A stretch of 64,000 bases of DNA from Eledone cirrhosa (taxonomy: Eukaryota): positions 35,588,001-35,652,000 of the forward strand of contig OZ024753.1 of assembly GCA_964016885.1 (NCBI GenBank). Direction: 5' to 3'. Below are positions 12,601 to 59,400 of this stretch, in pieces. Both the position numbers and the translations under genes were made by a program. Positions within the stretch are counted from its first letter, which is position 1; the number at the start of each line of letters is the position of its first letter. Below the pieces are notes generated by a model. The model saw nothing but the letters and a program-made list of their open reading frames with translations, had not been told where the DNA came from and searched no databases.

Positions 12601-14349
12601 TTGTTCATGATGAGAAGCATTCATGAACCGAGGTTCCATTGTATATGAAAGCATATTGAGGTAGCTGTTGTGACAGTAACAAAAGGATTAAACTAAATAA
12701 CTGAGAGTATACCAGTTTGTCCTAAGGTTAAAACCTTCCAGCTGGTATTCATTATGTTGCAGCCCACACAGGACATGTGTGCGCCACGCAAAAAAAAAGC
12801 ACCCATCACTCACTGTAAATGAGGTTGGTGTTAGGAAGAGCATCCAGCTGTAGAAATCAAGCCAGAATCAGTTTCCGTATGAGCAAGACAAAGTCAGCTG
12901 ACCGGACACTGCCCACAACAGGACAACCTGTCTAACCCATGCTAGCGTGGAAGAACGGACATAAAACGGTGATGATGATGATGATAGTCGATTGACAAGA
13001 TCCCAGACCTCATTTACTTAATGAATGGGGTGGAACTTGTCAAATCGGACCAAGGAAACAATGTTTCCATTGGTCTTTCCAATTGCTAATACTATCTACC
13101 GGTTGCAAATCCAGGCAGAAGGAGCACATGAAGTAAAGTCTCTTGCTCAAGAATATAACAAATCGCCTGGTCTGGGAATTAAACACACAACCTCATGATT
13201 GCAAATTTACTGGATTAACCCATTTCTTAATACCTATTCCTCAAATGTTTATTGTTTAATTTCAGAAACCATCAATGGCAGAGGATTCTACTTCAATTTG
13301 AAACAAATCGACGTTGCTTCACTAAAAGGAGGCAGCCCAAATGACAAATTCTTCATCGGATTTTTACAGAACTTCCTTTACAATGAATACGATGTTTTCA
13401 ATAGTGAAAAATCAAAAGTTGGTAGCAAGTTTGTAATTGTCGATAGTATTAATGATCTGCCTCCTATAGTCTACAACCCCATTACAGTCTCAAACATCAA
13501 AAGCTTCATTCGTTTACCAACACTGGATTCTTTAGGAAACATAGTTGATTTGATGTTTAAAACAAAAGAATCTAGTGGAATTCTTCTCTTCAATGGTGGT
13601 GTCAATGATGAATTCATTGCACTGGAGATCTACAAACGCAACTTGTGGCTAACCTATAACACTGGAAACAACCCAACAGCCATCCATTTGAACTCATTTG
13701 ACGTCAGCGATGACAAGTGGCATTCAGTGAAAATAAAATTCATCACACCCCAACACATTGTTGCTTATGTCGATGGGTCTAAGGTGGATTATAAACAACA
13801 ATCTTCAGGCAAACTTAATTTAGATGGTCCACTTTATCTAGGGGGATTACCTAAGGATGTACTTGAGAGTAACATTGCTAGTAAATTAAGTTCAACTCAT
13901 GGATTTAAAGGCTGTTTTGCTGCCATGCATCTAAATGGCAGGAGTGTTTCAATGAATAGTTTGATTGGTAAAAGTGACAGTATCAAATCTGGCTGTTTAG
14001 GTATGTTAAAACATTTTATATTTTAATTTAATGATGAAGGAGGGACTTAGCTATGTTTTGTTTGTTTGAGTTTTTATGTTTCTAGTGTGTTTCTATATAT
14101 ATCTATATAATATAAAATCAAAAGATGGTTAAAAGAGTTCCATGTATTTTATCATGCGCATTTCAGAAACAAATATCATCATGGGATGATATTTGTTTTT
14201 GAAATGCGCATAATAAAATACATGGAACTCTTTTAACCATCTTTTCATTTTATATTATTTATACTCCAGTCCTATAAACTGTTGAGTGCTACTTATCCGA
14301 TATTTGCATTGCTTTATTGTGCTACAATAAAACTCACCTCCTACATATA

Positions 14350-14393
<44 letters not shown>

Positions 14394-15080
14394 ATGGAAA
14401 ACAAAGATTCAGTGATGCATTGGAACACTATTTATGAGCGCATTACAATTGTTTCCCCAGCGAACAGCTCGAGGTACAACCCATTTGTGGATCGGACCTG
14501 ACTCTGCATTTGCAAGTTTCTCAGATATGTCTAAGCAAATCCTGTCTGTTCATTTATGATATTATTATACTCTGCTCCATTTCTTCCTCTTCTCACTCTC
14601 CTATTTATTTTTTTTATTTCTCATTCTATCCTCTGATAAAGGAGTAACATCCAAAATGTTAAGACTCTTTTCCTACTCTATCAAGTGTTAAACTAATATA
14701 TTTCTTCATTGTACTGTGTTGTTTTCTATTAATTTTTCTTACACACATGTATATACATACGCATAAATGTGTATATATATACATATACACACATGTATAT
14801 ATGTATCTATATATATGTGTGTATATGTATATATGTGTATATATGTATATATATATGTGTGTGTATATGTATATATGTATATATATCTACACATATATAT
14901 ATGTATATACATATATACAGTATATATGTGTGTGTATATAAATACATATATACATATGTATAAATGTGTATATGTATATATACATATGTGTATATGTATA
15001 TATATGTACGCATATATGTTTTATACATATATGTGTGTGTATATAAATACATGTACACACATGTATATACATATGTATAA

Positions 15081-15119
<39 letters not shown>

Positions 15120-15157
15120 TATATATATATATATATGTGTGTATGTGTATATATATA

Positions 15158-15212
<55 letters not shown>

Positions 15213-15464
15213 CGTTTCTGAATTTGTTTAGCAAGATTCTTTATCTGAAATGGCAACATGACCCTCCCAAAGTATAACAATATATATATATACATGTACA
15301 TATATATATAATTCTTTTTATTTTTTTTCCTTAAAGCTTTATCCACTGTTTGTCAGAAAACAACTTGTGCCAATAATGGAAAATGCCATCAGGGACCAAC
15401 TGGTTATCTCTGTGACTGTGACCAAACTGGTTACTCTGGTACCAGATGTACTGAACGTAAGTAT

Positions 15465-15500
<36 letters not shown>

Positions 15501-15647
15501 ATAATAATAAAATTGAAGACTAAAATCCAAAGAGGGCTCGATAAGGAAAATATATATCAAATATATAAGAACCCTAGAGCAAATATTTATTTGCCCGTTA
15601 AGGGTGAAAGCAGCGATTCTTTGCTTAAACTTTAATCTGTTATTTTA

Positions 15648-15705
<58 letters not shown>

Positions 15706-17081
15706 GGAGACCCAAAAAGATGTATACACACTTTCATTACCTCTACAGGCAATATTTATTAGAATGGTGCATACATATTTGGGGACACCCTGTATATTGT
15801 TTTTGAGGAAGATGGTGTGATTGATCAGGAACTTTGAGATTAGAAATAGGTGGTAATGAAACTACTACCTACTAGTCCATATTTTGATCTACCATAATCA
15901 ATCAACCCTCTAAAACGATTATAAATCAATGAAGTAATTAAGAACCCATCTTTAACTTTAGTTTTATTGTCATTGTTCAACACACACACACACACTGATA
16001 TTTAATATCATTGTATATTATACTCCACAAAACTGTTGAGTGCTCTGAAACAGTTATAAACATTTATATTTGTTGAATTACCAACCCTTCTGCTTATATA
16101 TATATATATATATATGTCATGGATGTGCAATAGTAATATACGTGAACGGCAAAGCATAAACGAACTAAGGAAAAAATTAGAAATAAGAGGGATCAGATGT
16201 TGTTTACTCGAGAGAAGGCTACGTTGGTACGGTCTCGTGATGCGCATGAAAGACGACAGCTGTATAACAAAGTGCAGGGCAATAAAGATAGACGGTAGCC
16301 ACGGAGTAGGCAGACCCAGAAAAACATGGGACGAGCTGATAAATTCCGACCTCACACGCTTACACCTCTCCAAGACCATGTCACTGGACCGAGACCTTTG
16401 GCGGTACTCAGTAATAGAGAAGACCCGCCTTACCTAAATACAAAGTAAAAACCTACTACAGTCAGTAGGCATCTCTATCAAAACACACCCCCGTCCCACC
16501 ACCTCCACCCCACCCACACCGCCCCTTTCAATGTAAAGTTATGTTGGTCCCACAACATCCAGGCCGAAACAAATGAGATCGTGTAGGTGTCACGACAAAA
16601 AACACAGTCCACGCTGTAAATGTGGCCGTGTAGGCAACACGGTAAAAACCTCCCAACCCCACACTGTAAATGTGGTTGGTGTTAGGAAGGGCATCCAGCT
16701 GTAGAAAACCCGTCAGACACTCCACGCTGTAATGTGGCCGTGTAGGCAACACGGTAAAAACCTCCCAGCCCCACACTGTAAATGTGGTTGGTGTTAGGAA
16801 GGGCATCCAACTGTAGAAAACCCGCCAGACAGTCCTATGCGAGCAAGACAACCACTCTTGCCTCAAGTGGGAAAACCCCCGTCCAAACCCATGCAAGCGT
16901 GGAACACGGACGCTAAACCTGATGATGATGATGATGTCATCATCATTACCATTTAACATCTGATGATATATATATATATAATGTGATGAAATACCAATGA
17001 TGGTTGGCAAAATCACTGATGAGGGACTAATTTTATAATATGTAATCCATGTGCAACCATGCAGTATTCTTCTTCCCTTTG

Positions 17082-17126
<45 letters not shown>

Positions 17127-17561
17127 CAATATTAAATAAATGGAAACTGTATTTATAAAACCATATTTATTTCATTATACATATTTCAGGGATACCAAAT
17201 TAAAATATGGTATGCCATCATCAGACAAAATACAATATATAAACAGTTTTATAAATAATTTTGACGTACCCTATTAGAAGTGACCATTACTTTTGGAAGC
17301 TGTCTGGATAGTAATGGTCGCTTCTAATAGGGTACGTCAAAATTATTTATAAAAGTGTTTATATATTGTATTTTGTCTGATGATGGCATACCATATTTTA
17401 ATTTGGTATCCCTGAAATATGTATAATGAAATAAATATGGTTTTATAAATATAGTTTCCATTTATTTAATATCGTATATCTACTCGAAAAACTTGTCGAG
17501 TGCTTTATATCAGTTATAAAATATTTACTTGTTGTTTCCCAACAATTTTAAATAGAACTTT

Positions 17562-17595
<34 letters not shown>

Positions 17596-18920
17596 CACCA
17601 TTTAACTTACATGTTTCAACACTGGCATGGGTTAGACGAGTTATCCTGTTGTGAGCAATGCCAGGTCAAAGTGATCATGTCTTGCTCATATATATATATG
17701 GAGGCATATGGCTTAGTGGCTAGAGCATTGGCCTTGCAATCGAAAGATTGTGAGTTCAATTCTCAGACCAGGTCATGTGTTGTTTCCTTGAGCAAGACAC
17801 TTTATTTCACATTGCTCCAGTTTACTCAGCTGTAGAAATGAGATGATAGGGACTGGGGCCCATATCATTCGACTGCAAAGTGGACGTGGAGGTCCCACAG
17901 CAAAAAAGCACCCAGCACTCACTGTAAATGAGGTTGGTGTTAGGAAGGGCATCCAGCTGTAGAAATCAAGCCAGAATCAGTTCCCGTCCCACCCTTGCAA
18001 GCAGGGAAAAGTGGACGTAAAATGAGGATGATGATGTGATGATGATGATATATATATATATATACCATCATCATCATCATTTTACATCCGCTTTTCCTTG
18101 CTTGCAAGAGTGGGATAGGCCCTCTTCAGCACAGTATCTCTCCATTCGTCATGTCCTCTGTCAGCTTCAGCCACCTCCGCCCATGTTTTTCATTATGAAC
18201 ACAACATACAAATATATATATATATATATCAAAGGTATATATTGAATTGGAAACTCAAAATAGTCTCTTACAATTAAATAGCTCAAAGAAAGAGGTTTTT
18301 CTGAGCCGTGTAATATAATTGAATATAAAAGAAAGATAAACACAGATATAAACGAATCTAGTCCCTTACGATTTGAACACAAATATGTTTATATCTGTGT
18401 TTATCTTTCTTTTACATTCAATTATATATATATTTATATATATTATAAAGAAAACGAAAAATCAGTGATGCATCTGGACCTAGTTTATTTCGTGTTACAA
18501 ATGTTTCGCCGGCATGTAGCTCGAGTCATGGTCCTTGTATGGATCTGGCTGATTCTACTTCTGCGGGTTCTTTCAGACATGGGTGTTATGTCCGGACAAA
18601 TTTTATCACATTTTATCACAAATTGTATCACACTCTACTCTGATGAATATCGAGTGTTAATTTTGGCATACCGCCTATGGAAGCACCATAGCTACCACTA
18701 TACACAAATATATATATATATATATATATATAATACAGATTAGAGCAAACATCACGGACACTCTATCTCAAAATTATTTTTGAAAAGCATTAGAAATGCG
18801 CAACCAGTAAAACTTAAAACCAAAACTGAATACTAACTAATACTATTACTAATTCTCACTTATTCCTAATTAAACTATTTTTCACTGTGAACAATTTGTC
18901 AGCATTTTCTTTTCCGTTTA

Positions 18921-18973
<53 letters not shown>

Positions 18974-19125
18974 TCAAATAACAGATTAAAGTTTAAGCAA
19001 AGAATCGCTGCTTTCACCCTTAACGGGATCTTCATTTAGAAGTAGAATAAATATTTGCTCTACGGTTCTTATATATTTGATATATATTTATCCTTATCGA
19101 GCCCTCTTTGGATTTTAGTCTTCAA

Positions 19126-19165
<40 letters not shown>

Positions 19166-19365: not shown

Positions 19366-22300
19366 ATATATATATATATATATAATGAGGGTTTATAACG
19401 ATATAGGACAATTTTGATCTCATTGCTTGCAATTTGCTCAACAAATCCATTTGGAGCACACACATAGGGTGAATTGAAAGGCAACATTCCCAGCCAGAAG
19501 CCTTTGCCATGACACGGAAGACAAGTATTGATTCAACATCTTAACTTATGAAAATGTTAAAGTACTCACAATTTGTGTCATTTGAAATGGCCAGTGTCTT
19601 TTTAGTTTATCACCTAAAGTTGTCAGAATATTAATATATATAAATCTGTCTGTGACTCTTTAAAATGTACATCTTAAAGAGTTACAGGCAGATATATGTA
19701 GCATATTATGTTTGTTATTAATTGTAGATAGGAAATATATTGTTTGTGTATGTATGTATGTACGTCCATACGTATGTATGTGTATATATTTTAAAGAGTT
19801 ACAAACAAATATATATAACTATACAAACACACATGGTGTATTATTATGTTTCATTAATGGTGGCTGAAGTGCATTTCTAATATATTATATGTTTACCTTT
19901 ATTTTTGTTTTCCTTTCTACAGAACCTATTGGTTACTACATGGGCAAAAACAACCTAGATGGCATAATAGTGTATACATATCCAGTGGATCAACGTATTG
20001 ACTCTTCTGAAGAGGAGTTAGCTTTTGGCTTCATGACACGTGACACGAATGGTGTACTGTCCCGCATCATTAGTAGTGTCAATGATGACTTTATAGAAAT
20101 ACGAATGGTTTGTTTTCATTTGTTTTTGTAACTGAAGTTTATATATAGCATGCACCACACCACTCACTCCCATACATCCCCCATCAGGTCAAGCTGAAGT
20201 GCACATCCAGTGAAGCACCCAGTCCACACTGTAAAGTGGTCATGTAGGTGTCATGACAAAAAGCACCCAGTCCACCCTGTAAAGTGGTCATGTAGGTGTC
20301 ACGACAAAAAGCACCCACTCCACACTGTAAAGTGGACGTTTAGGTGTCACGACAAAAAGCACCCAGTCGACACTGTAAAGTGGTCATGTAGGTGCCACGA
20401 CAAAAAGCACCCAGTCCACACTGTAAGTTAGGTTGGCACTAGGAAAGTCATCCAGCTATAGAAACCCAAGCCAAAATCAGTTTTGTTTGAGCAAGACATG
20501 GTCACCTGACCTAGCATTGCTCACAACAGAATAACTTGTCTAACCAATGCTAGCATGGAAAAGTGGATGTTAAACAGTGATGATGGTGATTTCAGTTATG
20601 AAACTGTGGCCAACCTCAGGGACCACCTTCAAAGGATTTAGTCAAACATAATGTATAACCACCCTTCCAGTACTTATTTCATTCATGTGACTGTGGGGCC
20701 AACTTCAGGGACCACCTTCAAGGGATTTAACGAATCATAATGTATCCCCACCTTGCGAATACTTTTTTTTTTCGTGTCTACACACATGCATGCTTGCTTA
20801 TGTTACAGCTAATATTAATAGTAACCGAATCACAATTTTGAATATTTTCCAGGTTGATGGTAAAATCCAAGCAATCTATGATACAGCTGGTAGTAAACAT
20901 ATTTTGAGCACCAGTGGTAACTACAGTGATGGCCAATACCATACTTTGTACTTCATGAGGAATTTTACAAACTCTAAACTGGTCATAGATAATTCTGAAG
21001 TTATTGCCAAAGAAAATAAAGGTCAGATAACATTTCTTGCTTCTTCTTCTTCTTCTTCTTCTTCTTCTTCTTCACTCATTCCTGAGAGGGTCATGGGGGC
21101 AGAGTCCTCAAACACTCCTTCCAGCAGGTCTTGTCAGTAGCAACCATCTCCAACTGATCTGGCTGGATCCCCAAGCATGACAAGCCAAATTCTTGGATGT
21201 TATCCGACCATCTTGCTCGGGGTCTCTTGCCAGTTGGTTTTGCCTGTAAAATCTGTCCAGCAATTCTTTCATGCTGCAAAAACTGGCGATGGGCCTGTGA
21301 CCTGTCCTGGGAGGCAGGGGATGGACTCACAAAGGTTGTGTATCTCTAGAGCCCGAAAGAGGGTCCAGAAAGGTACAAACCTTGACAATAGGAATTTGGA
21401 ATATCACAACATTTCTTGCTAATTTATTTAATTTTCACATCCTAGTACCTCATTCTGTTATGTGTATTTCATTTAAAATGAGTAGATTATATCCTTGAGT
21501 GCTATAGAACATCTGAGAGAGGGCACTTGCACTAGCGGTCAACGTTACTTTGGCTTATTGTGGGCTTTCTCAATGAGTGACCCTCAGAGGTATCCCCACT
21601 TTTGGGTAATTTCTTATGTTTTTATTTTAACCCTTTAGCATTTAAACCAGCCATATCCGGCCAGAATTCTCTCACCTCTTTCTGTTAAAACCGGCCATAA
21701 CTGGCCATTCATACTGATTTTAAGGTATTGTTCTCAAGATAAATAATATCAACATCTCATAAATTCGATATTATGTGAGATTACACCTTTATCACAAAAA
21801 TACAATAGTATATATAAAGTAATGTAAATGCTAAAGGGTTAAATGTTTATTTTTAGTCTTCTTTATAAAGCTTTCCCACACACAAAAACATCCACACTGT
21901 ACTATTCTATACCATCCTTATTGTCCTCTTCACCCTTTAGCATTTACTCTAATATTGTACTTTCATGGTAAAGGCCTTATCTCACATAATATGGAATCTA
22001 CGAGATTTTGAAGATGTTATTATTTATTTTATAAACAATACCTCAATGTCAGTATGAGTGGCCGGTTATGGCCGGTGTGAACAGAAAGAGGTGAGGAGAG
22101 AATTCTGGTCGGATGTGGCCGGTTTAATTGCTAAAGAGTTAATATAAGCTATGTGCCTAAATCAGAAAGCATTATTATTATTATTATTATTATTAAGGGC
22201 GGTGGATTGGCAGTATCGGTAGAGGGTCGGACGCCATGCTTTGACGCATAGAGTTACGGCCCTTTCCATTCTGAGTTCAAATCCCGCCGAGGTTAACTTT

Positions 22301-25300
22301 GCCTTTCATCCTTACGGGGTCGATAAAATAAAGTACCAGTAATGTACTGGGTAATTGATGGCCTTGTGCCAAAAGTAGAAACAATTATTATTATTGTAGT
22401 ATTATTGTAGTAGTAGTATTTTCATTATTATTTTTATTGCACATCATTACTGCTTTACCGAGCACAGCTCTGTGTGTCTTGAGTATGTGCAGTGTAGTTT
22501 TTGCTGATGTTTCTATTGTATTGATAGTACTTTTTGTATTGTGTGCAGTGCCTAGTAGTGCTATCTTTTGTATGCTGTATATATTTGTAAGTCCTGGGGT
22601 TTTGGTTATGTATTTGTCTGTGATTTTATCTTTCCTAGAGCACCTATTAATATAGGTATTGTTTCTGTTTACATTTTCCACGTTCGAGTTATCTCTATCT
22701 CTAGATCTTTATATTTGGAGAGTTTCTCTATTTCTTTGGTATTTATTATTATTATTATTATTACAGCTGCATTTATCTTGCTTTATGTTCATACGAGTTA
22801 TCACCAAGTCACAACCAGTGACCTCAAGAGACAACAAGGTCCGCCATGTTCAAGAAAGAACATACATACTCACACATGCATCTTTAGGTGTTTAGACTTG
22901 TGATGTACTTATATTGACAGAATCTTCCTTAGTATATGGGCAGTTACCATTAGTACTATCTTTTGTATTTCTCCTATACCGCTGGTTTCCTGGGATTTGC
23001 GATAAGTAAGCATTAGACCCCTTAGGTATCATTCCTAGAGCGCCTACAACCACTGGTATTGTTTTAGTTCTCAATTTCCACATTTTTCCAATTTCTATCT
23101 CCAGGTCCTTATACTTGCTCAATTTTTCAAATGTTTTTATAGATACATTCTTGTCTATTGGAACGGACATATCAATTAGCAGGCATACCCTCTTTTTAAA
23201 GTCCTTCAATATTATATCAGGTCTATTTGCATCTATTTTTTGGTCTGTTTGGATGCTAAAGTTCCACAAGATTGAGATGTGATCTTTTTCAAGTATGGGA
23301 GGTGGTTGATGCTCCCACCAATTCTTTTGATGGGGCAGGTCAAAATGCTTACACATTATCCAATGTATGTATTGTGCAGCTCTGTCATGCCTGTTTAGGT
23401 ATTCGGTTGGAGCTATAGGACTGCACATTGAAATTATATGATCAATGGTCTCTAGTTGTTTTTTACATACACGGCATAATGGGCTGCATCCATTTTTTAT
23501 TATGTTGGCTTGGTAATTTTTTGTTGGCAGACACTGATCTTGTGCTGATATAATCAGTCCTTCAGTCTCCGATTTCAGTCCAGAGGATGCCAACCACTGA
23601 TGGGTTAAAGTTTTGTCAACATCAGGATTGTTAGCTCGTTCTGGGTATTTTCCATACAGAGGCTTTTCTTGCCATTTCTTAGCCAGTTTCTGTAGCAGTT
23701 CTTTCTTTGCAGTTACTTTTACCTGCTTTGCTTTTTCTGTGTTTTCCATTTCAGCAGTAAATGGGACTTCTGAAATGTGTAGTCCATTACTGTATCTTTG
23801 TGCATCTTTTGTAATGGAGTATGATCTTTTGATGCTTTCGTGTTTCAAAACGAGTTTGATCATCCATCATCATCATCATCATCAGGTTTAGCGTCCGTGT
23901 TCCACGCTTGCATGGGTTTGGACGGGGGTTTTCCCACTTGAGGCAAGAGTGGTTGTCTTGCTCGCATAGGACTGTCTAGCGGGTTTTCTACAGTTGGATG
24001 CCCTTCCTAACACCAACCACATTTACAGTGTGGGGCTGGGAGGTTTTTACCGTGTTGCCTACACGGCCACATTACAGCGTGGACTGTCTGGCGGGTTTTC
24101 TACAGCTGAATGCCCTTCCTAACACCAACCACATTTACAGTGTGGGGCTGGGAGGTTTTTACCGTGTTGCCTACACGGCCACATTTACAGCGTGGACTGT
24201 GTGTTTTTTTATCGTGACACCTACACGATCTCATTTGTTTCGGCCTGGATGTTGTGGGACCAACATAACTTTACATTGAAAGGGGCGGTGTGGATGGGGT
24301 GGAGGTGGTGGGACGGGGGGTGTTTTGATAGAGATGCCTACTGACTGTAGTAGGTTTTTACTTTGTATTTAGGTATTATTATTATTATTATTCCAGATAT
24401 CTACCCAGCTGGTTATTTTGACAAATTGACCACCATAACTGTGGGAGCTGCTAAGAAGATATCTGCTAGTGAATATGAAGAACCATTCTATGGCATTATA
24501 GGAGGTGAGTTTTAGTTTAACCCTATATATAATACCTCACCACCTGAAACTGACCCTGGGTTTGGGATACAAAACTGATAATTTTAAAATGTTTCTGTTT
24601 TGTTTTGTTTTGTTTTATATGATTTCTTATATTTCTATATTTTGTCTTTGTTGGTCAGGTTACAATTTCAATAGATTATTCATGTTTAAAGATACCAATA
24701 AACTAACATTATCTGGTGATGCCAAACCTGCAGATATACCATATTCTCTTGAAGGGTAAGTAGAAATATTTCTCACAGATATTCTGTTCCGTTGTGAAAA
24801 GGGTTTGGTGCTGCCAACAGGTGTCATTAATGGTGCTGCCAACATGGTGTCATCCTGTCTCACACTGTAAATGTGGTTGATGTTAGGAAAGGGATCTTGC
24901 TGTAAAAACCCCAGCCAAATTTACAGTCCCGTCAGAGGTATGATGTGTCTGACCCATGCAAACATGGATTAATGGATGTTAAACAGTGCTGATGGATGTT
25001 AAACAGTGCTGATGGATGTTAAACAGTGCTGATGATGATTCAGAAATCAGTGGTCTAACATTGTGTTGTGTGTTTAATTCCTGTGTTTTTGTTGAAATTC
25101 ACTGTCTGTGTATTTCAATTAACCCTTTAACATTTAAACCGGTCATATCCGGCCAGAATTCTCTCACCATTTTCTGTCCAAACCGGCCATAACTGGTTCC
25201 TCATACTAACTTTAAGTTATTGGTCTCAAAATAAATACTATCAAAATCTCATAGACTCGATATTATGTGAGATATTTATGTAAAGCCTTTTCTCTGAAAA

Positions 25301-26266
25301 TACAATAGTAAATATAGAGTAATGTGAATGCTAAAGGGTTCATTTGGAAAGTTTTTATAAAATAACTGACTTTTTCATTAACTCTTTTGTGACTGAATCT
25401 AAACAGTGGAAACTCAGGTCACAAACAAATCAGTTCATGAGCAATTTTGAGAAGGTTTAGTAATATAACTAACTGGTCATGGTCCCAGCATTCCCAATTT
25501 TACAAGGGTCGGCCGAAAAGTTCATAGGCTGATACTCTCATGGAATGACCAAAATAGGTTTATTTTTCAACAGTCTTTGGAAAGTAACAATGCTGTTATT
25601 AATAAGAAGAGTTGAAATTAATGCATGCAAGATTTCACAGCTCTAGCATCAATACCATTAAATGTAAAATAGTCATGTGACTATATTATAAATATTTGTT
25701 GTTTTGTTTTATATATTTTAATTATATTCTCTTTTGTATTGCAGGGGAACTGATATTGTTCGTCCCCCTGAGAAACCAGAACCCACAACAACACCTGGTG
25801 GTGGTGGTGGTGGTGGTGGTGGTGGTGGAGGAGGTGGTGGAGGAGGTGGTGGTGGTGGTGGTGGTGATGGTGGCGGCGTAGTTGTGCCAGATGTCACTGT
25901 AGCCCCTCCCATTAATTCCGGAATTTTAATTGCTGGCGGCAAAGGTGGTGGTATGGGTGTGGCAATTGATGTGCCTGTTTACTCCCCCCTTGTTGCCGAA
26001 CCTGTCAAAGCAGGACCAGCTGTTGCTTTCAGTGGTGCTGGTGGGGGTGCTAGTATTGCAGAAGGTATCGGTAGAGCCGACCGAGCTGGGGCAGCTGCAG
26101 GAACGTTCTTGGGTCTACTTGTTCTCGGAGCCGGTTTTGCTTTTGGTCTTATAAAATTACTCCAGGGTGGCGGATTTGGTGCGGGCTCATCGACAACGGA
26201 TGGGGGTGGAATTTCAATATCGTCCCCATCTGCTGGGCCTGTTATACAGCAGTCGTCTGGTGGTGG

Positions 26267-26297
<31 letters not shown>

Positions 26298-29260
26298 GGT
26301 ATTGGGGAAGCAAAGGCCGCCATAGCCAATGGTACAGTTGGAAGCGGTGCTGGTGGAGGATCAAGCGCTACATCTGGCTTTACTTACATTGGTAGCAGTG
26401 GAGGGTCGAGTGCTCAAAGCGGTGGAGCAGCTGCTGGCTCCAGTGACTCGGCTACATTGCGAGTCACTGGAACATTCTCAAACAAAGGGACTGTGATTGG
26501 GACCCCTCAACAAGGCCGGGCAGCTACATCATATTCATCAGCTTCTTACTCTGCCAAACAAAGCGCCGTTAATCTGAACACAGACAGCAGCAGCAACCTG
26601 ACAGCAGGGGCAGGAGGAGGCAGTTCTTCAAACTTTGCCTATGTAAACAATACTGCTGGTTACGGTGGTGGTGCTGGTTACGGTGGTGGTGCTGGTTACG
26701 GTGGTGGTAGTGCTGGTGGTGGTGGTGGTGGTGGTGGTGGTGGTGGTAGTGTTGGTAACTACAACTATCAATCTAGTGTTCACAGCAGCAACATGGGTCA
26801 TTCAACAGGAGGTAGTTTCTCACAACAGCAGCAGTACAACAATGCAATGTATTCCACGCTGGGGGCATCAAGTGGTGGTGGTGGCAGTGGTGCATTGCAC
26901 GACAATGTCTTCGCTCAGAACACGCTCGATGCTGCAGGTTATGGTTCCGGAAGTAACACTCTCTCATCATCATACCAGTACCAAATGAAGTCATATTCTG
27001 CATCGAACTTTGAATCTCATGCATCTGGTTACAATACAGGTGGTGGGAGTATGGCATCAATTGGTGGCCCGATGGTTATTGCAGATGGTGTCAGAGTTGA
27101 TTGCTGTCTAATGACATCCGACGGCAAAAGTGTCATCACTGGTTCTACAACAGGCGCCCCACAAATTTGGAACATGCAGGTAAATAAACAATAAGAAAAT
27201 CTTATCTTCTATATATAAATTTGAGCGACTTCTGATTGTGAGGATGTAGGTCTCGTGATCATAAGGTTGTGGGGTTCAATTCTCAGACCAGATGAAGCAT
27301 TGAATTTTGATTGTCTAAATTTTGATTGTCTAAATTTTTATTGTCTAAATTTTTATTGTCTAAATTTTTATTGTCTAAATTTTTATTGTCTAAATTTTTA
27401 TTGTCTAAATTTTTATTGTCTAAATTTTTATTGTCTAAATTTTGATTGTCTAAATTTTGATTGTCTAAATTTTGATTGTCTAAATTTCAGACTGGTGAAC
27501 TTATCCGAAGTATGGATGGCAATATTGCTGGTGCATCAAACCTTCATCTTGCTTGCAATGGCCAACTGCTTGTGGGTTCTGCACATACAGATAACTTGGA
27601 TGTCAATGAATTTTCAACCAAAAAAGGAGTGACCAATAGGAATTTGCAGGTCAGTTTATTTTCTTACTATTTATCATCATCATCATCACATGGAGGCACA
27701 TGGCTTAGTGGTTAGAGCATTGGCCTTGCAATCGAAAGGTTGTGAGTTCAATTCTCAGACCGGGTGATGTGTTGTTTCCTTGAGCAAGGCACTTTATTTC
27801 ACATTGCTCCAGTTTACTCAGCTGTAGAAATGAGATGATAGGGACTGGGGTCCCTATCATTCCACTGCAAAGTGGTCGTGTAGGTGCCACGGCAAAAAAA
27901 CACCCAGCACTCACTGTAAATGAGGTTGGTGTTAGGAAGGGCATCCAGCTGTAGAAATCAAGCCAGAATCAGTTCCCGTCCCACCCTTGCAAGCAGGGAA
28001 AAGCGGACGTAAAATGAAATGATGATGATGATGATGATCACCCATTTTCCATATATATATATATATATATAATATTAAGGATACTATTTATGGTTATGTA
28101 TATACTAAAACTTTTTATAGTTATGTATATTTTAAACCCTAAACAGTGAAGGTCAGTAATTTATTACTACCTTATTACCAGTAAGATAAATAGCTCAATG
28201 TAATAAGATCAGTTGTTCTACAGAGCAGTTATATAGAATTCACAAGAATCAAAGCTATGTTCAAAGCATTTATTCACTTACAATTGTTTCATCCAAACCT
28301 AGGCTTGGAGTCTTAGGAGCATTTTTCAATGTTTGTACACATGATTCACCTCCTTTCCAACGCAAGAGACATACAGATACATATGTATATATTGATGTAC
28401 AGTGGAGTGACATATATTATATTATATTTCTGTATAGCAATTCAAAATCAAAATCCTCATTAAAACAAAATATATATATATAGTGGTAGAACAATGGAAG
28501 GTAATATCCGTAGTGGTAGAGCACTCAGTCCAAGGGACGAGTTAGGTAGAAGTGGTTACACAACAGTTAGTTCACCATACCGAGAACAATTGTTTCAGCT
28601 TAGCGGATCCTCAGCTCTTTGGATTTTATTATTACTATATATATATATAATGGAGGCATATGGCTTAGTGGTTAGAGCATTGGCCTTGCAATCGAAAGGT
28701 TGTGAGTTCAATTCTCAGACCGGGTGATGTGTTGTTTCCTTGAGCAAGACACTTTATTTCACATTGCTCCAGTTTACTCAGCTGTAGAAATGAGATGATA
28801 GGGACTGGGGTCCATATCATTCCACTGCAAAGTGGTCGTGGAGGTGCCACGGCAAAAAAGCACCCAGCACTCACTGTAAATGAGGTTGGTGTTAGGAAGG
28901 GCATCCAGCTGTAGAAATCAAGCCAGAATCGGTTCCCGTCCCACCCTTGCAAGCAGGGAAAAGCGGACGTAAAATGATGATGATATATATATATGTATGT
29001 AAAAGGTAAACAGAAATAACAACACAATCGGTACAGTGTATGGAAGGAATATATTAGTTTAACGCTTAAAATAGCAGGAAGAGGGTCTTAACGTTTCAGA
29101 ATAAAGAATGAGTAATTAGAAAGATTGAAGGGCTGAGCAGGGAAGGGCATCTAACAGTAGAAATCTAGTGAAAATAGTCCTATATGAGCAAGACACAGTC
29201 ACCTGACCAAACATGCCCCTAATGGGACAACCATGTAAAATGGATGTTAAACGATGATGA

Positions 29261-32776: not shown

Positions 32777-33048
32777 AAATACAGAGTGTAAAACTGAGAT
32801 TGCACCATATATATATTTATATATATAAATGAAAGTTTGAGTTAAAAACTCATACTGAAACCTTGTAATTCACAAGCTCAAAGTATAAATACTGAACATT
32901 ATAATAATATATGTAGTAATAAACACAGTAAATTGTGTGTCTAATATTACGAGGGTTGAAGAACCACTTTTGACTTACGGCACACGAGGTGATGAATACA
33001 TTTTTCTGTGTGAACGTTAGTACTAGGTGTTGTCGCATTTAATCAGAT

Positions 33049-34255: not shown

Positions 34256-34293
<38 letters not shown>

Positions 34294-35694
34294 GAGGTTA
34301 TATTTAATTTGTTGGGATTCAACAGGCTTAAAAATGTTATAACTGATATAAAGCACGCAACAGATTAGTGAAGTAAATATTCAATATATTAATAAATGGA
34401 AACTATATTTATAAAACCATAATTATTTTATTATATATATTTCAAGGGCAACCAAGGCAAATTATGGTGCACTTTCATCAGATAAAATACAGATTTGTTT
34501 TATAAATAAATATTGACATACGCGGAAAAAAATATATATATATATATATATATATTGGAGGTGAAATAGAAGATAAAAAAACTGACAAAACTATTTTTGT
34601 GATATTTCTTACTAAAGAAATATCAGTATCTGTTTAAACTAGTATATTTCTACCAATAGCAATGTGAAGTTTTCTTCAACTATCTTTAACTATTTTGATA
34701 TTATACGTAGGAATACCCTTGCTTCTACATTACATAAGCTTTTCACAGAAAATTATAATGGAAAGTTTTATAATGGACATTTTTAAACAGATGGTATTGT
34801 ATCATAAAGAGGTGGCAAATGTCGGATAGAATGCGTTGCGGAATACGTTCCAGCTCTCTGCTCTCTCTCTGAGTTCAAAACCAACCGAGGTCAACTTTGC
34901 CTTTCATCCATTCAAGGTCGATAAAAAAAGTACCAGTCAAGTACTGGAGTCAATTCTTCCTCTATATCTCTTTCACACTTCCATTCTCTCAGTCTCTCTA
35001 TACTTCTCAGGAAGAAATCTGCTGTGTTCAGAGCTGGAGAGGAGATGAGCGCGCCATGTTTTAAAATGCCTTAGAGATGCCGTAACCAGCTACTCATAGT
35101 GATGTTAAGGTATTGTTCTCAGAATAAATATCAAAATCTGAAAATATAATAGTATATATAGAGTAATGTAAACGCTAAAGGGTTAAATAATCTTCCTGTT
35201 CCCCAAATTATGTGTTAATTTATCAATGATTTGCAGAATAGTTAAGGCAAGAGCATCAGTACTAGATCCTCAGAGTGACTTATTTTTCCAAGTGTGTGTT
35301 TGTATTTTAATAATATTTATTGTACATGCATTTTTGTAAACTAATTTCTTTATATGTATATAAGATATACAGTGTAATTACATCATATAGACAGTACAAT
35401 TTCACATCTTAAAGTAAGGTCACATGCATTATATATGTGTATGTATATATATATAATATATATATATATACTTATGTAGATATGTATGTATATATATATA
35501 TATAATATATTTATTAAAATAACAGATTAAAGTTTAAGCAAATATATATATAATATATAACTATATATATATATATAGTTATGTATATGTATATATGTAG
35601 ATATGTATGTATGTATATATATATGTGTGTAGATATGTATGTATGTATATATGTATATATGTAGATATGTATATATATATATATATGTGTGTAG

Positions 35695-40889: not shown

Positions 40890-41090
40890 ATAGGAACCAG
40901 TAAGACCCCGACAGCTGAGCTCAAGCCGTTTCGACGGCTAATTCTGGACGCCAGAATTAGCCGTCGAAACGGCTTGAGCTCAGCTGTCGGGGTCTTACTG
41001 GTTCCTATTACCCACTCTACTACCTCAAGTATTGAGTACTTTGGTGCGTTATGGTCCACCTGGTTCCTTACCACATTTCCTTCGTTATAC
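40890..41090 (+). mobile_element. Perfect fold-back mini-element with half hammerhead; relative at 57660-57780
   Basis: 58-bp perfect arms with loop acg; GAAAC-stem-GTC; tail ...gtattgagtact; flanked by (TA)n. Confidence 0.7.
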
Positions 41091-43545: not shown

Positions 43546-43674
43546 GTACAATTATTTCATGAAACCTACAGCTTGACAAATGTAGCCGAACACCCACTGT
43601 CATCGCCTCCATCTCTCTCGCCCTCCCCCATCTCTCTGTATTGTAAGCAAATGGGGTCACGTGCTGGCCTCCCC

Positions 43675-49400: not shown

Positions 49401-50589
49401 CACCCTTAAACCTGGAATCCATCAAGGTACGTATTAGTCACATTTGTTTCGATATCTTTAATTATTGTAAATTAATATATGTAAACGGCATAAGTGGAAG
49501 TAATTCAGGTGTAAATATACTTTTCATTAGAAAATTGTTAATGCGTTGTTGGTCATGTGGTGACATATGTGTATTGTTGTGGTTGTCAATCGAAAACCGA
49601 TGGTAACTGTCTTGTTCTTCAATTGTGGATCATTTGGTGACTGTACATATGTCAGTCTATACCTCCTTTGGTGACTGTACAGGCAGTACATATGTCAGCG
49701 AAAGTGCTGTGTGTCACGCCTCAGTCTCTTTCCCTCTCGAAGGCTCAATGTCCTGTGGCCAAAGGCATGTAGTGTAAGTACATAAGGTCGCCAAAAAAAG
49801 CGGTTAAAAGACCTGTATAATCTTCTGTGGCTATCGCTTGTTAAAACCTCGCTGGAGGGTAAACAAAGCATTTTAAAGACGTCTAACTTCCGTCTCCATC
49901 GTACGATCTTGCAGTCACCAAAGGATCCTCAATTGTAGAGCAGCGTCACCATCGAACTTCGATAAACTACCAGAATTAAACTCCCTAAACACTCCGTTGG
50001 CAGACATCGAAAACCCCATCTTCACAGCACCACCAATGCGTTAATAATTGTCTTATGAAAAAAATATTTAAATCCAGAATTACTTCCCTTTGTTCTGTTT
50101 GCATATATTAATTTTTTTTTGATCAAAATTTTTCCAAAGTAGCCATAAGTACCACTATTTAACTCAGTAGAATTGCGGCCTTCGCGGTGGCGTGCGAACT
50201 GCGTCTCTGACTACCAGTCTCCCTATCTGGCGTTCGATTCGTAGTGGCGTACGACTGCTAACTGGGCCTGGGACTATTCGGGGCCGGCACATAGATGCAA
50301 GGCCCGTCCCTGACCACCGTGGAGAATTCTTTTTCAAAATTTCATCTAATATGCAAATGAGTTTGAAGTTCATTTACATATTAGAAAGAATCATATAGAG
50401 AGAATCTTAATTACACTCTTGAAGCTTCATTTACATATCTAATTTGTTCATTTGCATATTAGAACAAATTTCTTTTAGAAATATATTAGAGAGAATCTTA
50501 ATTACATTTTTGAAGTTTCATTTACATATTAGAAGGCTCATTTGCATATTAGAAGAAATTTTAAGAAGAACCTTAGAGGTTAATTACAT

Positions 50590-51480
50590 TCTTGGAAGAC
50601 AGTTGGATTGAACCTTCTTAACTTATTTTCTATATACTTATATTCTTGGAACTTAGATTCTTATAACCCTTGAGCTTACACTCTTGGAAGACAGTTAGTT
50701 GGATTCGAACCTTCTAACTTAGATTCTTAAAGGAGAACTTACATTCTTAGAACCCTTGAGGTTACTTACACTCTTGGAAGACAGTTGGATTCGAACCTGA
50801 GATACTTCTACATTCTAAACTTGACTCTTAGATTCTAACCCATGATACTTCTTACAACATTCTTAGATTCGAACCATTGATACTTTCTTTACATTCTAAC
50901 CCTTGATACTTTTTACTACGTTTTTGACTTACTTAGATTCGAACCTTAGATACTTTCTTTACATACTTCAATTACATTCTAACCCTTGATACTTTTTACT
51001 ACGTTTTTGACTTACTTAGATTCGAACCTTAGATACTTTCTTTACATACTTCAATTACATTCTAACCCTTGATACTTTTTACTACGTTTTTGACTTACTT
51101 AGATTCGAACCTTAGATACTTTCTTTACATTCTAACCCTTGATACTTTTTACTACGTTTTTGACTTACTAAGATTCGAACCTTAGATACTTTCTTTACAT
51201 ACTTCAAGGTTCTTATTACATTCTTGATACTTAGAACCCTTGATGGTTACTACATTCTTGGATTCGAACCCTCAATGATACTGTCTACATTCTTTAATGA
51301 TACTTACTTTTCATTCCCTTGATTGTACTTACTATTTTGGGTCGACGGTTAGATTCGAACCCTTGATAGTTCTTTCTTTAATTTTCTTTTCTCATTGTTG
51401 ATATTTTCTTTCCTTAGATTGGAATCATTGATGACATTACATTTTTGGAGCGACTGGTGGATTCGAAACCTTGATGAAGC
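50590..51480. repeat. Complex tandem array built on (g/a)gattcgaacc and ttctaaccct motifs
   Basis: Nine gattcgaacc copies; ~83-bp units at 50880-51200. Confidence 0.8.
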
Positions 51481-55119: not shown

Positions 55120-56605
55120 TAAGGGGATGCTTTGGAGAGGAGCAATTATAGGGGTATAAAACTGATAGATCAGGTTATGAAAGTGGCAGAAAGGATTTTA
55201 GCACAACTAATTAGAGAAAGGGTCAAACTAAATGAGATGCAGTTTGGTTTTGTGCCTGGGAAGAGTACAACAGATGCCCTCTTCTTGGTGAGACAATTGC
55301 AAGAGCGGTTCTTAGAGAAGAATAGGCCACTATACTTAGCCTTTGTTGACCTAGAGAAGGCCTTTGATAGGGTACCCCGATCTGTCATCTGGTGGTCCCT
55401 AAGGAAGCTAGGTGTTGAGGAATGGCTTGTGAGGACAGTGCAAACTTTGTACAGAGGTACTCTCAGTAACGTCAGGGTAAGAATGGAGTTTAGTGAGGAA
55501 TTCCAGATACAAGTAGGAGTACATCAGGGTTCGGTCCTCAGCCCGCTCTTGTTCATTATAGTCCTCCAAGCCATAACAGAGGAGTTTAAGAATGGCTGTC
55601 CATGGGAACTTCTCTATGCTGACGATCTGGTTCTTATAGCAGAATCAGTAGAGAAGCTAGAGAATAAATTCTGGCTATGGAAACAGCAGTTGGAAGCAAG
55701 AGGACTGAGAGTGAATCTAGCTAGGACAAAAGTGTTGATGAGTAGAAAAGAGGACAAAACTCTGATTCCGTCAGGGAAATGATGTTCGATATGCAGAAAA
55801 GGAACTGGCATAAATTCTATAAAATGCACACAATGCAGATCCTGGGTACACAAGAAATGTAGCGGGATAGCAGGCAAACTAACAGGTAGGGAGAAATATG
55901 TATGCAGTAGATGTACAGGGAAATTAGACAGTAGAAGTCGCATTGATAGACACATTTTTCAAATGCAGGCGGGTGCTATAGAAGTGGTGGATAGCTTCCG
56001 GTACCTAGGAGATCAGATTAGCATGGGAGGAGAGTGTTCCGAGGCAATAGTATCTAGAATAAGGACGGGTTGGAAGAAGTTTAGGGAGCTGCTTCCTCTG
56101 TTGACGAAGAAGGGTTTCTCCCTGCGTACGAAAGGCCGGTTGTATGATGCCTGTGTGAGGAGCGCGATGCTGCATGGTAGTGAGACATGGGCAGCAACTG
56201 CAGAGGATATGCGATGGCTGGAGAGAAATGAGGCAAGCATGCTCCATTGGATGTGCAATGTCAATATGCGTGAACGACCCAGCATAATGTGTTGAGAGAG
56301 AAACTGTGTCTGAGAGGGATAGAATGTAGTGTACGGGAGAGGAGACTGAGGTGGTATGGACATGTGATGCGCATGGAGGATGACCGATGGGTGAAGAAGT
56401 GCCAGGAAATGCCAGTTGAAGGAAGACGTGGTAGAGGTAGACCGCGAAAAACATGGGCGGAGGTGGTGAGAACAGACCTCAGATCATTGAAGCTCACGGT
56501 GGAGATGACGAGGGACCGTGACGAGTGGAGAGATGCTGTGCTGAATAAAACCCGTCCCACCCTTGCAAGCAGGGAAAAGCGGACGTAAAATGATGATGAT
56601 GATAT
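55120..56605 (+). mobile_element. 5'-truncated RTE-clade LINE (RT domain to 3' end), with a premature stop and frameshift
   Basis: NYRGIKL, QFGF.PGKSTTDA, FVDLEKAFDRV, GVHQGSVLSP, LLYADDL, FRYLG; (GAT)n tail; flanked by (TA)n. Confidence 0.93.
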
Positions 56606-58138
56606 ATATATAGTGAGAGTGAAGAATAACATGGTCAGCAGGTCAAAAAGGGATTATTTACAGTATTAACAATTGTTTCATTGATCAGGTGAGTCTAAAG
56701 GCCGCTGATCACTCGAAATTGCATCACTCGACCTTAAATACAGTGCGTGTTTCTGATCAAATCATCGGAATGCTGTACAGCCCACCATGTTATTCTTCAC
56801 TATTGTTACTCCAACTTACTTGTCAAGTTAATTTTAAGATCTTTTGATTCCATGTTATGCTTCCAGATCTGGAATTTCTTCTCTAATTCTGCCATAGATT
56901 TGAATATGACGACTAGATCATTGGCTTATAGGAATTCCTATGGGCAGCCAGTTTTAAATTGTTCCATTATTGCCAGGAAAATGATAATTAACAAGAGAGG
57001 GCTAAGAATAGAGTCCTCATGGACTTGCACACTACAATCACTGTTAATTCTAACTTAGCTGAGTACTGCTCTGTACATGGTTTGTACTGTCTTCACAAGC
57101 CACTCTTTTATTTCTACTTTTGTAAGAGCTTATTTTTAGCTAGGAACTAGCATTTGCCTCACAAGGAAAAAGGTATCAGTGGTACTTTTACTCAACACAA
57201 ATCTGAACTGAATCTCATTTAGGTTTAGTCTCCGGGAGTTAAAGACCCCTAGTTCTTGTTAGGACATCATTCTAGACAATGGAAAACTTTCAAGTAAAAC
57301 CTGTGACTCAATGGCAGCCAATAATGTTGACCTGTTCTTTTTGGATACCTGTCACTGTTATTTATAGAGTGAGATTTGTCCACTCCAAAGCCTCTTTTCA
57401 TTTTAAAAAGTTTCAAGCTCGGGCATCACTTGATCTTAACAACTTTCACCTGTGTTGCGTGAGCATGGCCTTTTCTTTTGCTGCAACATATGCAGAAAGG
57501 AATCTAAGTTTGAGGCAATCACAAAACACTCAATGGAGCAAGAAGTTAATACATTATCGTCCAAAGTAAACATAACAGTTAAAATGTGTGACACCAAGAA
57601 AAATGACAAGGTAGTGGCCATATTTACACCACAACAACGATAAATACAGAAAGGTATATATATAGGAAAAGAGTCAGGACCCCGACAGTTGAGCTCTGGC
57701 CATTTCGAAACGGCCAAAGCTCAGTATCTACTACCCTAAGTATCGAGTACTCTGGTTCCTTACCACACTTTCTTTGTTATATATATATATATGTAAATGT
57801 GGTTGGCATTAGGAAGGGCATCCAGCCAGAAACACCCCTATTTGAGTGAGACATGGTCACCCGACACAACTTGCCTCAAAATAGAACCCTTCTAACCCAT
57901 GCTAGTGTGGAAGATGGACGTTAATCGATGATGATGATATATGCATCAGAAAATATATATTTTAATCAATTCTACGGATTTTTTTTTTTTTTTTTTTTTT
58001 TCTAAATTTTTATTTTTATTTTTAATGATTTTTTAATGAAACTGAAAATATTTCCTTGTTTACATAGTTTTCTTTTTTAATGGTGGTAGTGAAGAATCAG
58101 TGGAGCATCAAGTAAAGTGCCATAAGCTTTATTTTGTA

Positions 58139-58440
58139 GTATAAGAGGGATAAGTTGTAGGGTGCGGGAGAGAAGACTGCGATGGTATGGACATGTGATG
58201 TGCATGGAGGATGACCACTGGGTAAAGAAGTACCAAGAAATCCCAGTAGAAGAAAGATGCAGTAGAGGTAGACCACGAAAAACATGGGCGGAGAAACATG
58301 GTGAGAGCAGACCTCAGATCGCTAAAGCTCACAGAGGAGATGGCGAAGGACCGTGACAAGTGGAGAGATGCTGTGCTGAATAGGACCCATCCAACCCTTG
58401 CAAGCAGGGAAAAGCGGATGTAAAATGATGATGATGATGA
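58139..58440 (+). mobile_element. RTE LINE 3' fragment
   Basis: RRLRWYGHV...; same 3' end and (GAT)n tail. Confidence 0.82.
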
Positions 58441-58638
58441 CCTTTATATCATGAGTTTAAGTCATCCTGACATTGAAATTACCAGTTGGGCAGAGGTGGT
58501 GAGAGTTGACCTCAAATTGCTGAAACTCAGAAAGGAGATGAGGAAGAAATGCAGCGAGTGGAGAAATGTTGTGCTAAGAAGGACCCATGCAACTGTGGAA
58601 GAACGGATGTAAAACAATGGAGATGTATTAATGTATGC

Positions 58639-58712
<74 letters not shown>

Positions 58713-58859
58713 GAAAGTCAGATTTGCGGCTTGTTATGAAACTTTATTACATATTACAACTTACAACTGTTTCGATATCAATCAGCCTGGGTTTGATTAG
58801 GCGATCAGATCTCGACACCTTCACAGATATGCAAGTTTACATGAGTGGTCCCATCCAAA

Positions 58860-58896
<37 letters not shown>

Positions 58897-58898
58897 TA

Positions 58899-59250
58899 TA
58901 TAATTGAATAAACAAGAGAGATGAACACTAATATAAACATACATGTGTTCGAATCGTAAGGACTAGTTTTGCTAGGGTGAAAAATTACAATCGACTGGTA
59001 ACCAGGCGATTGCCCAATATAGGTCTGTTATTTTTCTTAATTTACTACTTAAAATTAAGTCTGACAAACCATATTGCTGTAGTTAGTATTTTTTCACCCT
59101 AGCAAAACTAGTCCTTACGATTCGAACACATGTATGTTTATATTAGTGTTCATCTCAATATTTATTCAATTATATTACACGGCTCGGAAAAGCTTTTTTC
59201 TTAGAGCTATTTAATTGTAAGAGACTACTCTGAGTTTCTAACTCACTATA
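58899..59250 (+). mobile_element. Fold-back element in (TA)n; antisense relative at 18230-18430
   Basis: ~85-bp inverted arms, ~100-bp spacer, tail shared with the 18.2-kb copy. Confidence 0.65.
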
Positions 59251-59400
59251 TATATATATATATATTTCATATAGAAATGGCTTCTACAGGACTAGAACCG
59301 TTTCATTCAATATTTATACTCTGCTATGTATTGAGTACTTTACTTACTGTGGTTACTCCCGATTGAACCCGGGATAAACTTATATATATATACGTATATA

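Follow-up and report, generated by a model that had tools for sequence, protein, structure and literature searches.

What gives rise to a short palindrome that lies in a (TA)n microsatellite and bears an extra tail at one end? The question is raised by a stretch of 64,000 nucleotides from Eledone cirrhosa (assembly GCA_964016885.1, contig OZ024753.1, positions 35,588,001 to 35,652,000 of the forward strand), here called the window, with positions counted from its first letter. A first-pass annotation of the letters had noted a series of such fold-backs with a GAGT(A/G)CT motif in the tail and had ascribed them to Penelope-like elements (PLEs). We are highly confident that these pieces are 5′-truncated insertions of several families of Hydra-clade PLEs into (TA)n. 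The best overall explanation, which we hold to be quite probable, is that they are stumps made from an RNA with two hairpins, each of which would dock the element's protein, that reverse transcription would start 5′ of each hairpin, and that both ends of the cut target would serve as primers.

The window contains (TA)n-flanked fold-backs at 14104-14261 (arms 92% identical), 17122-17479 (95%), 40893-41005 (97%), 18318-18422 and 58902-59171, and a small 20-nt fold-back remnant at 57690-57723 (Table 1). These five long fold-backs and the remnant were present as first listed, but two further sites (59270-59382 and 16010-16100) are not palindromes, the former being an inverted arm followed by a short stub and a tail. 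All six GAGT(A/G)CT tails were located where they had been placed. The arms, initially thought to fall into unrelated families, are not all unrelated: three families were found (40890/57660, 18230/58899 and 17122/16010). Six hairpin-bearing ends had been overlooked (15498, 18446, 18968, 28075, 28472 and 34292), and the total is 14 in 64 kb. The tail, about 60-95 nt long, occurs on one terminus only, so the two termini are not equal at the target as those of a miniature inverted-repeat transposable element (MITE) would be; the sole exception, at 32913-33273, has no hairpin. Junctions differ within families (40890 and 57660, 18230 and 58899, 17122 and 34292), and the fold-back is centred at the place of hammerhead stem II in E4, 16-17 nt before the GAAA in E1 and on a 25-nt hairpin in E6.

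The arms carry hammerhead ribozyme remnants, as had been suggested. Pattern matching and stem pairing revealed a complete type I hammerhead in both arms of the fold-back at 17122 and another at 34424-34490, together with 3′ halves at 14201, 40966, 57707 and 59304 (minus strand); no clear hammerhead was found in the 18230/58899 family. No hammerhead was among the Rfam matches listed for the window (150 of 320) or for two sub-regions, which were just sub-threshold microRNA-type matches on palindromes and microsatellites. The stumps retain the GAAA core of the hammerhead, and the template was therefore presumably uncleaved. PLEs are known for inverted 5′-truncated copies with an optional tail (PMC8557442; PMC3846280; published work is cited throughout from the parts of each text available to us), and the Hydra clade comprises PLEs with a C-terminal endonuclease (EN), hammerheads and (TA)n targets, an octopus family being listed among them (Craig et al. 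2021, PMC8557442). The proposed PLE origin is thus supported by the hammerheads, the head-to-head inverted 5′-truncated copy and the tail on one end, and can be narrowed to the Hydra clade; the proposed TA targeting agrees with the insertion of the window elements in (TA)n.

The tail motif had been regarded as a recognition signal for the reverse transcriptase (RT) or the endonuclease. As a linear 7-mer, GAGT(A/G)CT is not enriched in the window (17 matches, where 11.1 ± 3.7 are expected and 9 in 100 shuffles have at least as many). It makes up the 3′ half of a stem-loop with a bulge, RCTC-stem-loop-stem-TN-GAGY-RCT; in the window tails, ACTC pairs with GAGT, closing a small hairpin whose 3′ side has a 2-nt bulge. 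This hairpin pattern, searched for in the form found outside the window together with its A-T counterpart, has seven matches in the window (shuffle mean 0.47; none of 300 shuffles reaches seven), and in six of them (TA)4 lies 37-61 nt downstream, against a background of 5.4%. The bulged hairpin is the lowest-energy fold for 6 of the 14 window hairpins, and the outer stem is kept in most of the others; in the 18230/58899 family it takes the variant form GCTC..GAGC-TAT.

Is the hairpin maintained by pairing? We compared 91 loci outside the window, consisting of 11 from genome contigs and the best 80 of 274 confirmed metagenome loci, in which 129 pattern matches gave 58 within 200 nt of a hammerhead and 52 distinct hairpins. 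Because the search pattern fixed the outer ends alone, the upper stem provided a free test of pairing. Upper-stem pairs 1 to 3 are standard in 49 of 52, 37 of 50 and 33 of 40 hairpins (0 of 5000 shuffles each) and include all four Watson-Crick types, a separate recount agreeing for the first pair; for pairs 4 and 5 the signal is weak or no better than chance (20/33 and 8/17). As a control of register, the 2-nt bulge gives 119 pairs out of 142 and other registers give 34-55. A covariance model built from 46 outside hairpins only, run on the whole window with hits accepted to an E-value of 10, returned 18 hits, of which ranks 1-7, 10 and 12 are tails, including all six noted earlier; the other nine are unassigned. 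The idea of a recognition signal is supported, not for the linear 7-mer but for a covarying bulged hairpin that occurs twice in the parent element.

The same loci tie the hairpin to open reading frames (ORFs) for RT and GIY-YIG endonuclease, a link that had been suggested as a check and that holds outside the window, although no such ORF lies within it. The signatures RWK, DKT and CxCX5C (RWR and DKS being allowed) occur in 25, 28 and 24 of 28 long outside ORFs, the longest of which, as in L012, L025 and L071, have about 700 aa. The hammerheads of L002/L004, L039 and L016 match published Hydra hammerheads by eye, and in the Atlas one outside Hydra protein lies close to clusters in which 26-50% of the members have GIY-YIG and 92% have RVT_1. 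Searches of Pfam and of PDB sequences gave no match for the outside Hydra proteins, and the viral collection gave 0 matches to the Hydra motif pattern. After the hammerhead GAAA, 33 of the 52 hairpins lie at 45-68 nt, 17 at 109-142 nt, one at 23 nt and one, doubtful, at 49 nt; the distance of 43-64 nt in undeleted window copies agrees with the first of these classes. Before the ATG, 22 of 32 loci have two tandem hairpins, six have one and four have none, and hairpin 2 ends 7-46 nt upstream of the ATG. Among 67 loci with an ORF end, 26 have no hammerhead match, 8 are too short, 16 have no hairpin, 9 have one and 8 have both; 13 of the 16 hairpin-free ends have a TA-type repeat 33-71 nt after the GAAA. 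The hairpin also appears, in canonical or near-canonical form, in four of the six published Hydra consensi of PMC8557442 when these are compared by eye: three end with GCTC..GAGC-ACT or a near form, Hydra-1_Ajap begins with two copies, and Hydra-1_Amil and Hydra-1_Obim end before the hairpin. No window family resembles the 3′ end of Hydra-1_Obim by eye. Five 9-mer terms had four matches at Hydra ends and three in the much larger Naiad and Chlamys files, none of the latter with the hairpin 5′ half; this comparison with other PLE clades covered Naiad and Chlamys, by term search and by eye, and the term search at Naiad ends was negative (line breaks may hide matches).

Both kinds of insertion end fall just short of a hairpin. 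In each of the 10 informative outside comparisons, out of 16, tail-less ends diverge from the longer relative at 0-6 nt ahead of hairpin 1 (the six dropped were cross-family alignments ending 19-47 nt early, and the offset of 0 in L054 was read by eye), the tail-less end of L057 lies 11 nt before it, those of five window fold-backs and of the copy at 15498 stop 2-6 nt before it, and tailed ends stop 1-8 nt before hairpin 2 in eight cases out of eight (L012, L019, L020 twice, L024, L025, L028 and L071), every offset being blurred by a few bases of TA microhomology. Because the ends stop before hairpin 1 or before hairpin 2, the tail is the stretch between both hairpins. L009 has one-tailed fold-backs like those of the window at 3908-4124 and at 4597-4942; their families are represented with ORFs in L028 and L005, and the arm of one fold-back extends into the last codons of the ORF.

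Loci L001-L011 are Hydra-type PLE pieces and (TA)n arrays in contigs deposited under bacterial genomes; this DNA is apparently eukaryotic and most probably entered the bacterial bins from a host. At L010 1100-1260 and L009 3760-4130, different Hydra families are stacked end to end in a single TA run; here the same microsatellite is used repeatedly.

Public reads provide a further view of the E2 family, which is present in four runs, one of which contains the inverted-arm-to-tail joint. In one restriction-site-associated DNA (RAD) run, 5887 reads pass from the E2 arm into (TA)n at position 17479 and about 13,000 run on into the hairpin; many copies have therefore used site 1, just before hairpin 1, whether in this organism or in a close relative. 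In reads of other copies, a C at 17486 (11751 of 12160, + mates) restores the first upper pair of the E2 hairpin, and most reads give GAGTGCT for the 18446-18710 element (18657 T>C). A contig joining the inverted arm (17198) directly to the hairpin loop (17494) has a depth of 562 against 4-14 for the pieces listed in that run. Upstream of the E2 hammerhead, each of the four runs shows a 14-46-fold fall in depth; other copies are diverged upstream and RAD reads begin inside the hammerhead, and neither depth nor the tailed/tail-less ratio was used as a count. The reads held no usable empty-site allele, a 17479-18048 joint being better read as other copies that end in (TA)n before a SINE (short interspersed nuclear element) tail.

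How might one RNA yield both ends? The parent would be a tandem or read-through RNA with the order ORF end, hammerhead, site 1, hairpin 1, site 2, hairpin 2 and ATG; the layout of ORF end, hammerhead, two hairpins and ATG is that of the outside loci. From the positions of the ends, it is likely on balance that each hairpin is a docking site for the element protein, with the RT starting a few bases 5′ of it. A start before hairpin 1 would give a tail-less end, and a start before hairpin 2 a tail containing hairpin 1. The endonuclease would cut both strands in (TA)n, and both DNA ends would prime on same-sense RNA, usually one at each site; both complementary DNAs (cDNAs) would soon stall, in many cases within a self-complementary stem (hammerhead stem II, for instance), where they would anneal. 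The product would be (TA)n, an inverted tail-less arm, the junction, a sense arm, the tail and (TA)n. That two-end priming with stalling and annealing produces the (TA)n-flanked head-to-head stump is a serious possibility, but one that we advance with reserve. Tentatively, we further suggest that Hydra PLEs from cnidarians to cephalopods might carry a bipartite RNA origin, in which each of two tandem hairpins seats one subunit of a dimeric telomerase-like RT, the subunit starting just 5′ of its hairpin and priming from one side of the double-strand cut.

Several observations weigh against these proposals. The outside loci include close relatives, so that the counts given above overstate the number of independent cases, but the register control retains this relatedness. 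Covariation tells neither RNA from single-stranded DNA nor one strand from the other, and counts of G-U against A-C left the hairpin strand undecided. The covariance model missed 5 of the 14 window hairpins, which are mostly of the ACTC..GAGT form seen in one doubtful case among the 52 outside; window tails extend 26-61 nt beyond the hairpin, compared with 20-44 nt outside. In L008 there is a tail at both ends, and therefore one tail per insertion is a tendency. Hydra-1_Obim, the one published octopus consensus, has a tail-less end and, by eye, no clear 5′ hairpin, and hairpin 2 was not seen in E. cirrhosa; the reads examined end before the tail end. No remnant of the Hydra ORF (telomerase-like RT and GIY-YIG) was found in the window by motifs, profile or tblastn, an absence that is expected for truncated stumps; moreover, the window and the outside loci have a single DNA match, of 25 nt, so that the assignment to the clade depends on motif, spacing and target. 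The stall-and-anneal step is the weakest, since the centre of any palindrome folds and later deletions can shift junctions.

Could the fold-backs have nothing to do with reverse transcription? At first sight, the long inverted arms, the TA targets and the subterminal hairpin would suit DNA transposons (MITEs, fold-back elements or a Helitron-type terminal hairpin), and palindromes may be assembly fold-back artefacts. Both are largely refuted and scarcely credible here: the arms contain polar hammerheads, one end has the extra tail, and the hairpin is tied elsewhere to RT-endonuclease ORFs, while the arms are 92-97% rather than 100% identical and the E2 family recurs in the four public runs, its inverted-arm-to-tail joint in one. 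We judge it improbable that the fold-backs are short non-autonomous units, akin to animal retrozymes, copied as such in trans by the Hydra protein. The depth of the 17198-17494 contig is in keeping with one junction existing in many copies (depth being no copy number), the copies at 15498 and 18968 have nearly the same lopsided layout, and non-LTR retrozymes (LTR, long terminal repeat) have been argued to derive from PLEs (10.64898/2026.07.22.740005). The contig and the twin copies keep alive the first-pass view of a system of tiny elements, but that view is now less supported, in that the one-tailed fold-backs of L009, identical in layout, adjoin ORF-bearing Hydra copies, an arm reaches ORF codons, and junctions vary within families, though later deletion could do so. 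Such units would also lack hairpin 2, which our model requires to remake the tail, and the window copies are not tandem arrays. The window fold-backs are best read as truncated insertion products.

A role of the hairpins in DNA would leave the PLE origin intact. The GIY-YIG endonuclease could recognise them in cDNA or tandem copies and cut a few bases 5′, the tail being a resolved intermediate; EN-mediated resolution is the origin ascribed to the tail in PMC8557442, the D. virilis endonuclease is noted in PMC11167929 to have needed the tail for recognition, and the end positions fit cuts as well as starts. Nevertheless, this appears unlikely, because in the sole in vitro system tail ends coincide with RT start sites (PMC11167929), and because an upper stem that varies in sequence yet covaries, together with a fixed bulge, is more in keeping with a folded single strand than with duplex DNA. 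Self-priming on an antisense template, proposed in PMC3846280 for rotifer Penelope elements with head-to-head repeats and junction palindromes, would free the hairpins for another job such as translational control, for which the ending of hairpin 2 at 7-46 nt before the ATG would be suitable. We regard this as very improbable: it leaves unexplained why both end types lie a fixed few bases from both hairpins, and tail ends were obtained in PMC11167929 as start sites on an RNA template across the junction of pseudo-LTR (pLTR) and ORF. Two other identities were rejected. Naiad elements do not fit, in that the window has hammerheads and five cephalopod Naiad consensus ends are without such a hairpin by eye; nor do non-LTR retrozymes, because the window copies are single or head-to-head, without tandem units bearing intact hammerheads.

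Priming at two hairpin-defined starts would bear on an open question, namely how the tail and the inverted repeats of PLEs, the sister group of telomerase, come about; the one in vitro study mapped two start sites but not the feature that defines them (PMC11167929). A repeated, covarying hairpin that predicts both end types turns this into a simple mutational test. If correct, programmed twin priming would account at one stroke for the PLE tail and for the head-to-head repeats, and the hairpin would be a portable 25-nt tag setting where copying starts within an RNA. The hairpin is also a DNA-level signature for short Hydra remnants that resemble MITEs or microRNA hairpins and that are dense in the window. 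Elements of this kind and the fold-back-plus-tail architecture are already known, but the hairpin pair and its relation to the two types of end are apparently undescribed. The available parts of the main text of PMC8557442 do not mention a hairpin or palindrome, those of its supplement contain none of the words hairpin, palindrome and stem-loop, and no description of the hairpin was found in the available parts of PMC13282606, PMC4209133, PMC7229834 and PMC3846280. A literature search that did not cover Repbase entries, subscription papers, figures and bioRxiv supplements found no published description of the hairpin pair.

Table 1. Elements of the window and their tail hairpins (rank, position among covariance model hits)
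Element	Positions	Strand	Hairpin	Rank	Features
E1	14104..14345	+	14263-14290	4	Fold-back 14104-14261 centred just 5′ of hammerhead 3′ half (GAAA at 14201); arm ends 4 nt before hairpin; lowest-energy fold is stem, 2-nt bulge, stem; tail to (TA)n
Probable tail-less end	14390..14570	-			Hammerhead 3′ half (14455), microsatellite 60 nt on; kin to 18446-18710 arm; no clade assigned
15498 copy	15498..15655	-	15533-15580 (GCTC..GAGC-CCT)	5	Inverted arm with degenerate hammerhead, ~10-nt stub, tail
Stub with tail	15995..16098	+	16022-16044	1	E2 family
E2	17122..17565	+	17482-17504	7	Fold-back 17122-17479, minimal type I hammerhead per arm (17369-17434 and mirror); tail to (TA)n; high-copy family
E3	18230..18430	-	18276-18306 (GCTC..GAGC-TAT)	missed	Fold-back, tail; E6 family
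18446 element	18446..18710	+	18632-18658		Inverted arm with hammerhead 3′ half (18507, minus), stub, tail
18968 copy	18968..19135	+	19057-19105	6	Second 15498-family copy, 88% identity
28075 element	28075..28350	-	28190-28226 (GAGC-TAT variant)	10 (E 1.5)	Hammerhead 3′ half (28290), long tail
28472 element	28472..28636	-	28520-28542		Hammerhead 28614-28585, tail; between TA runs
34292 element	34292..34535	-	~34352-34374 (decayed)		Non-palindromic E2-family copy: hammerhead 34424-34490, tail
E4	40890..41090	+	41014-41040	3	Fold-back centred on loop of 15-bp stem at hammerhead stem II position (GAAAC at 40966); tail
Probable tail-less end	56612..56760	-			Hammerhead remnant, (TA)n 62 nt after GAAAC; no clade assigned
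E5	57663..57780	+	57726-57751	12 (E 2.7)	Deleted E4-family member
Probable tail-less end	58712..58866	-			Hammerhead remnant, microsatellite 59 nt after GAAAC; no clade assigned
E6	58900..59250	+	59182-59210 (GAGC-TAT variant)	missed	Unequal fold-back joined at 25-nt hairpin; tail
E7	59268..59384	+	59318-59339	2	Inverted arm ending at hammerhead GAAAC (59304, minus), 13-nt stub, tail

The 34292 element is 78% identical to E2 over 232 nt. The arm and stub of the 18446-18710 element do not match, and it is possibly a composite. The left end of the 28472 element (28615-28636, minus strand) resembles an inverted tail end of the 15498 family, its right tail being that of another family; a template switch between two RNAs is possible. 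At 32913-33273, a (TA)n-flanked element with terminal inverted repeats of 60-69 nt and a well-formed type I hammerhead (33049-33128), without tail or hairpin, perhaps belongs to another PLE clade or is a retrozyme-like unit. A hammerhead-like remnant similar to that of 58712-58866 adjoins (TA)n at 47820-47910 (plus strand).

The window is otherwise intron-rich animal DNA. Its plus strand carries laminin G exons together with a WD40 exon; there are also many (TA)n runs, and SINEs of octopus-like appearance. The host gene at 1809-30281 (plus strand; especially 25722-27194 and 29535-30281), which we take to be neurexin-like, has several laminin G exons and an EGF-like exon; within a single long exon lie a probable membrane segment, a stretch rich in Gly and Ser and the apparent start of a WD40 repeat, and the WD40 exon comes next. 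It would be unusual for a laminin G receptor to carry a WD40 propeller on its cytoplasmic side. A 310-nt imperfect fold-back at 37556-37866, without hammerhead or tail, is presumably two head-to-head SINE copies, and long inverted termini at 21622-22147 and 49577-49975 are MITE-like. An unclassified repeat of about 350 nt was recognised by eye in three related copies (~41900-42270, 43400-43550 and 47400-47760), and short dispersed repeats at 50320-50590 contain several ATTTGCAT sites, which we assume to be an octamer-like motif. Of the fragments at 55123-56295, 22892-23866 (minus strand), 44705-45109 and 59420-59790, one is from a LINE (long interspersed nuclear element) RT (RVT_1), and we take the others to come from a LINE with a restriction-like endonuclease, a second RT-like sequence and a mariner-like element.

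How do the window elements compare with known systems? In L1 twin priming, both target strands prime on one RNA to give an inversion joined by microhomology, and the second priming site is variable, whereas in the window elements both starts appear to be fixed by RNA structure. The Hydra clade shares with the window the (TA)n target, a hammerhead near the 3′ end, the inverted 5′-truncated copy and the optional tail, but its described tails are 30-40 bp long and ascribed to EN resolution (PMC8557442). Non-LTR retrozymes are likewise short, non-coding, PLE-related and equipped with a type I hammerhead; they form tandem head-to-tail arrays with active ribozymes, in contrast to the single head-to-head stumps and mostly broken ribozymes of the window (PMC7229834; 10.64898/2026.07.22.740005). 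In Adineta vaga, Penelope elements show head-to-head inverted pLTRs, junction palindromes and a tail on one end, although these are ascribed to antisense self-priming, and the target-site duplications visible there are unreadable in (TA)n (PMC3846280). For the Poseidon element PAc of Anolis (Frangieh et al. 2024, PMC11167929), the tail is the interval between two internal RT start sites, sequence 3′ of the start sites is required, both strands of an AT-rich target are cut and extended, a dimer is predicted, and hammerhead cleavage is dispensable. The tail as an interval between two RT starts, the cutting of both strands and the dispensable cleavage are all paralleled in our reading of the window, with the difference that PAc starts in an AC-rich stem-loop inside the ORF, for which no repeated docking element was identified in the available parts of that report, whereas the Hydra hairpins lie in the 5′ untranslated region (PMC11167929).

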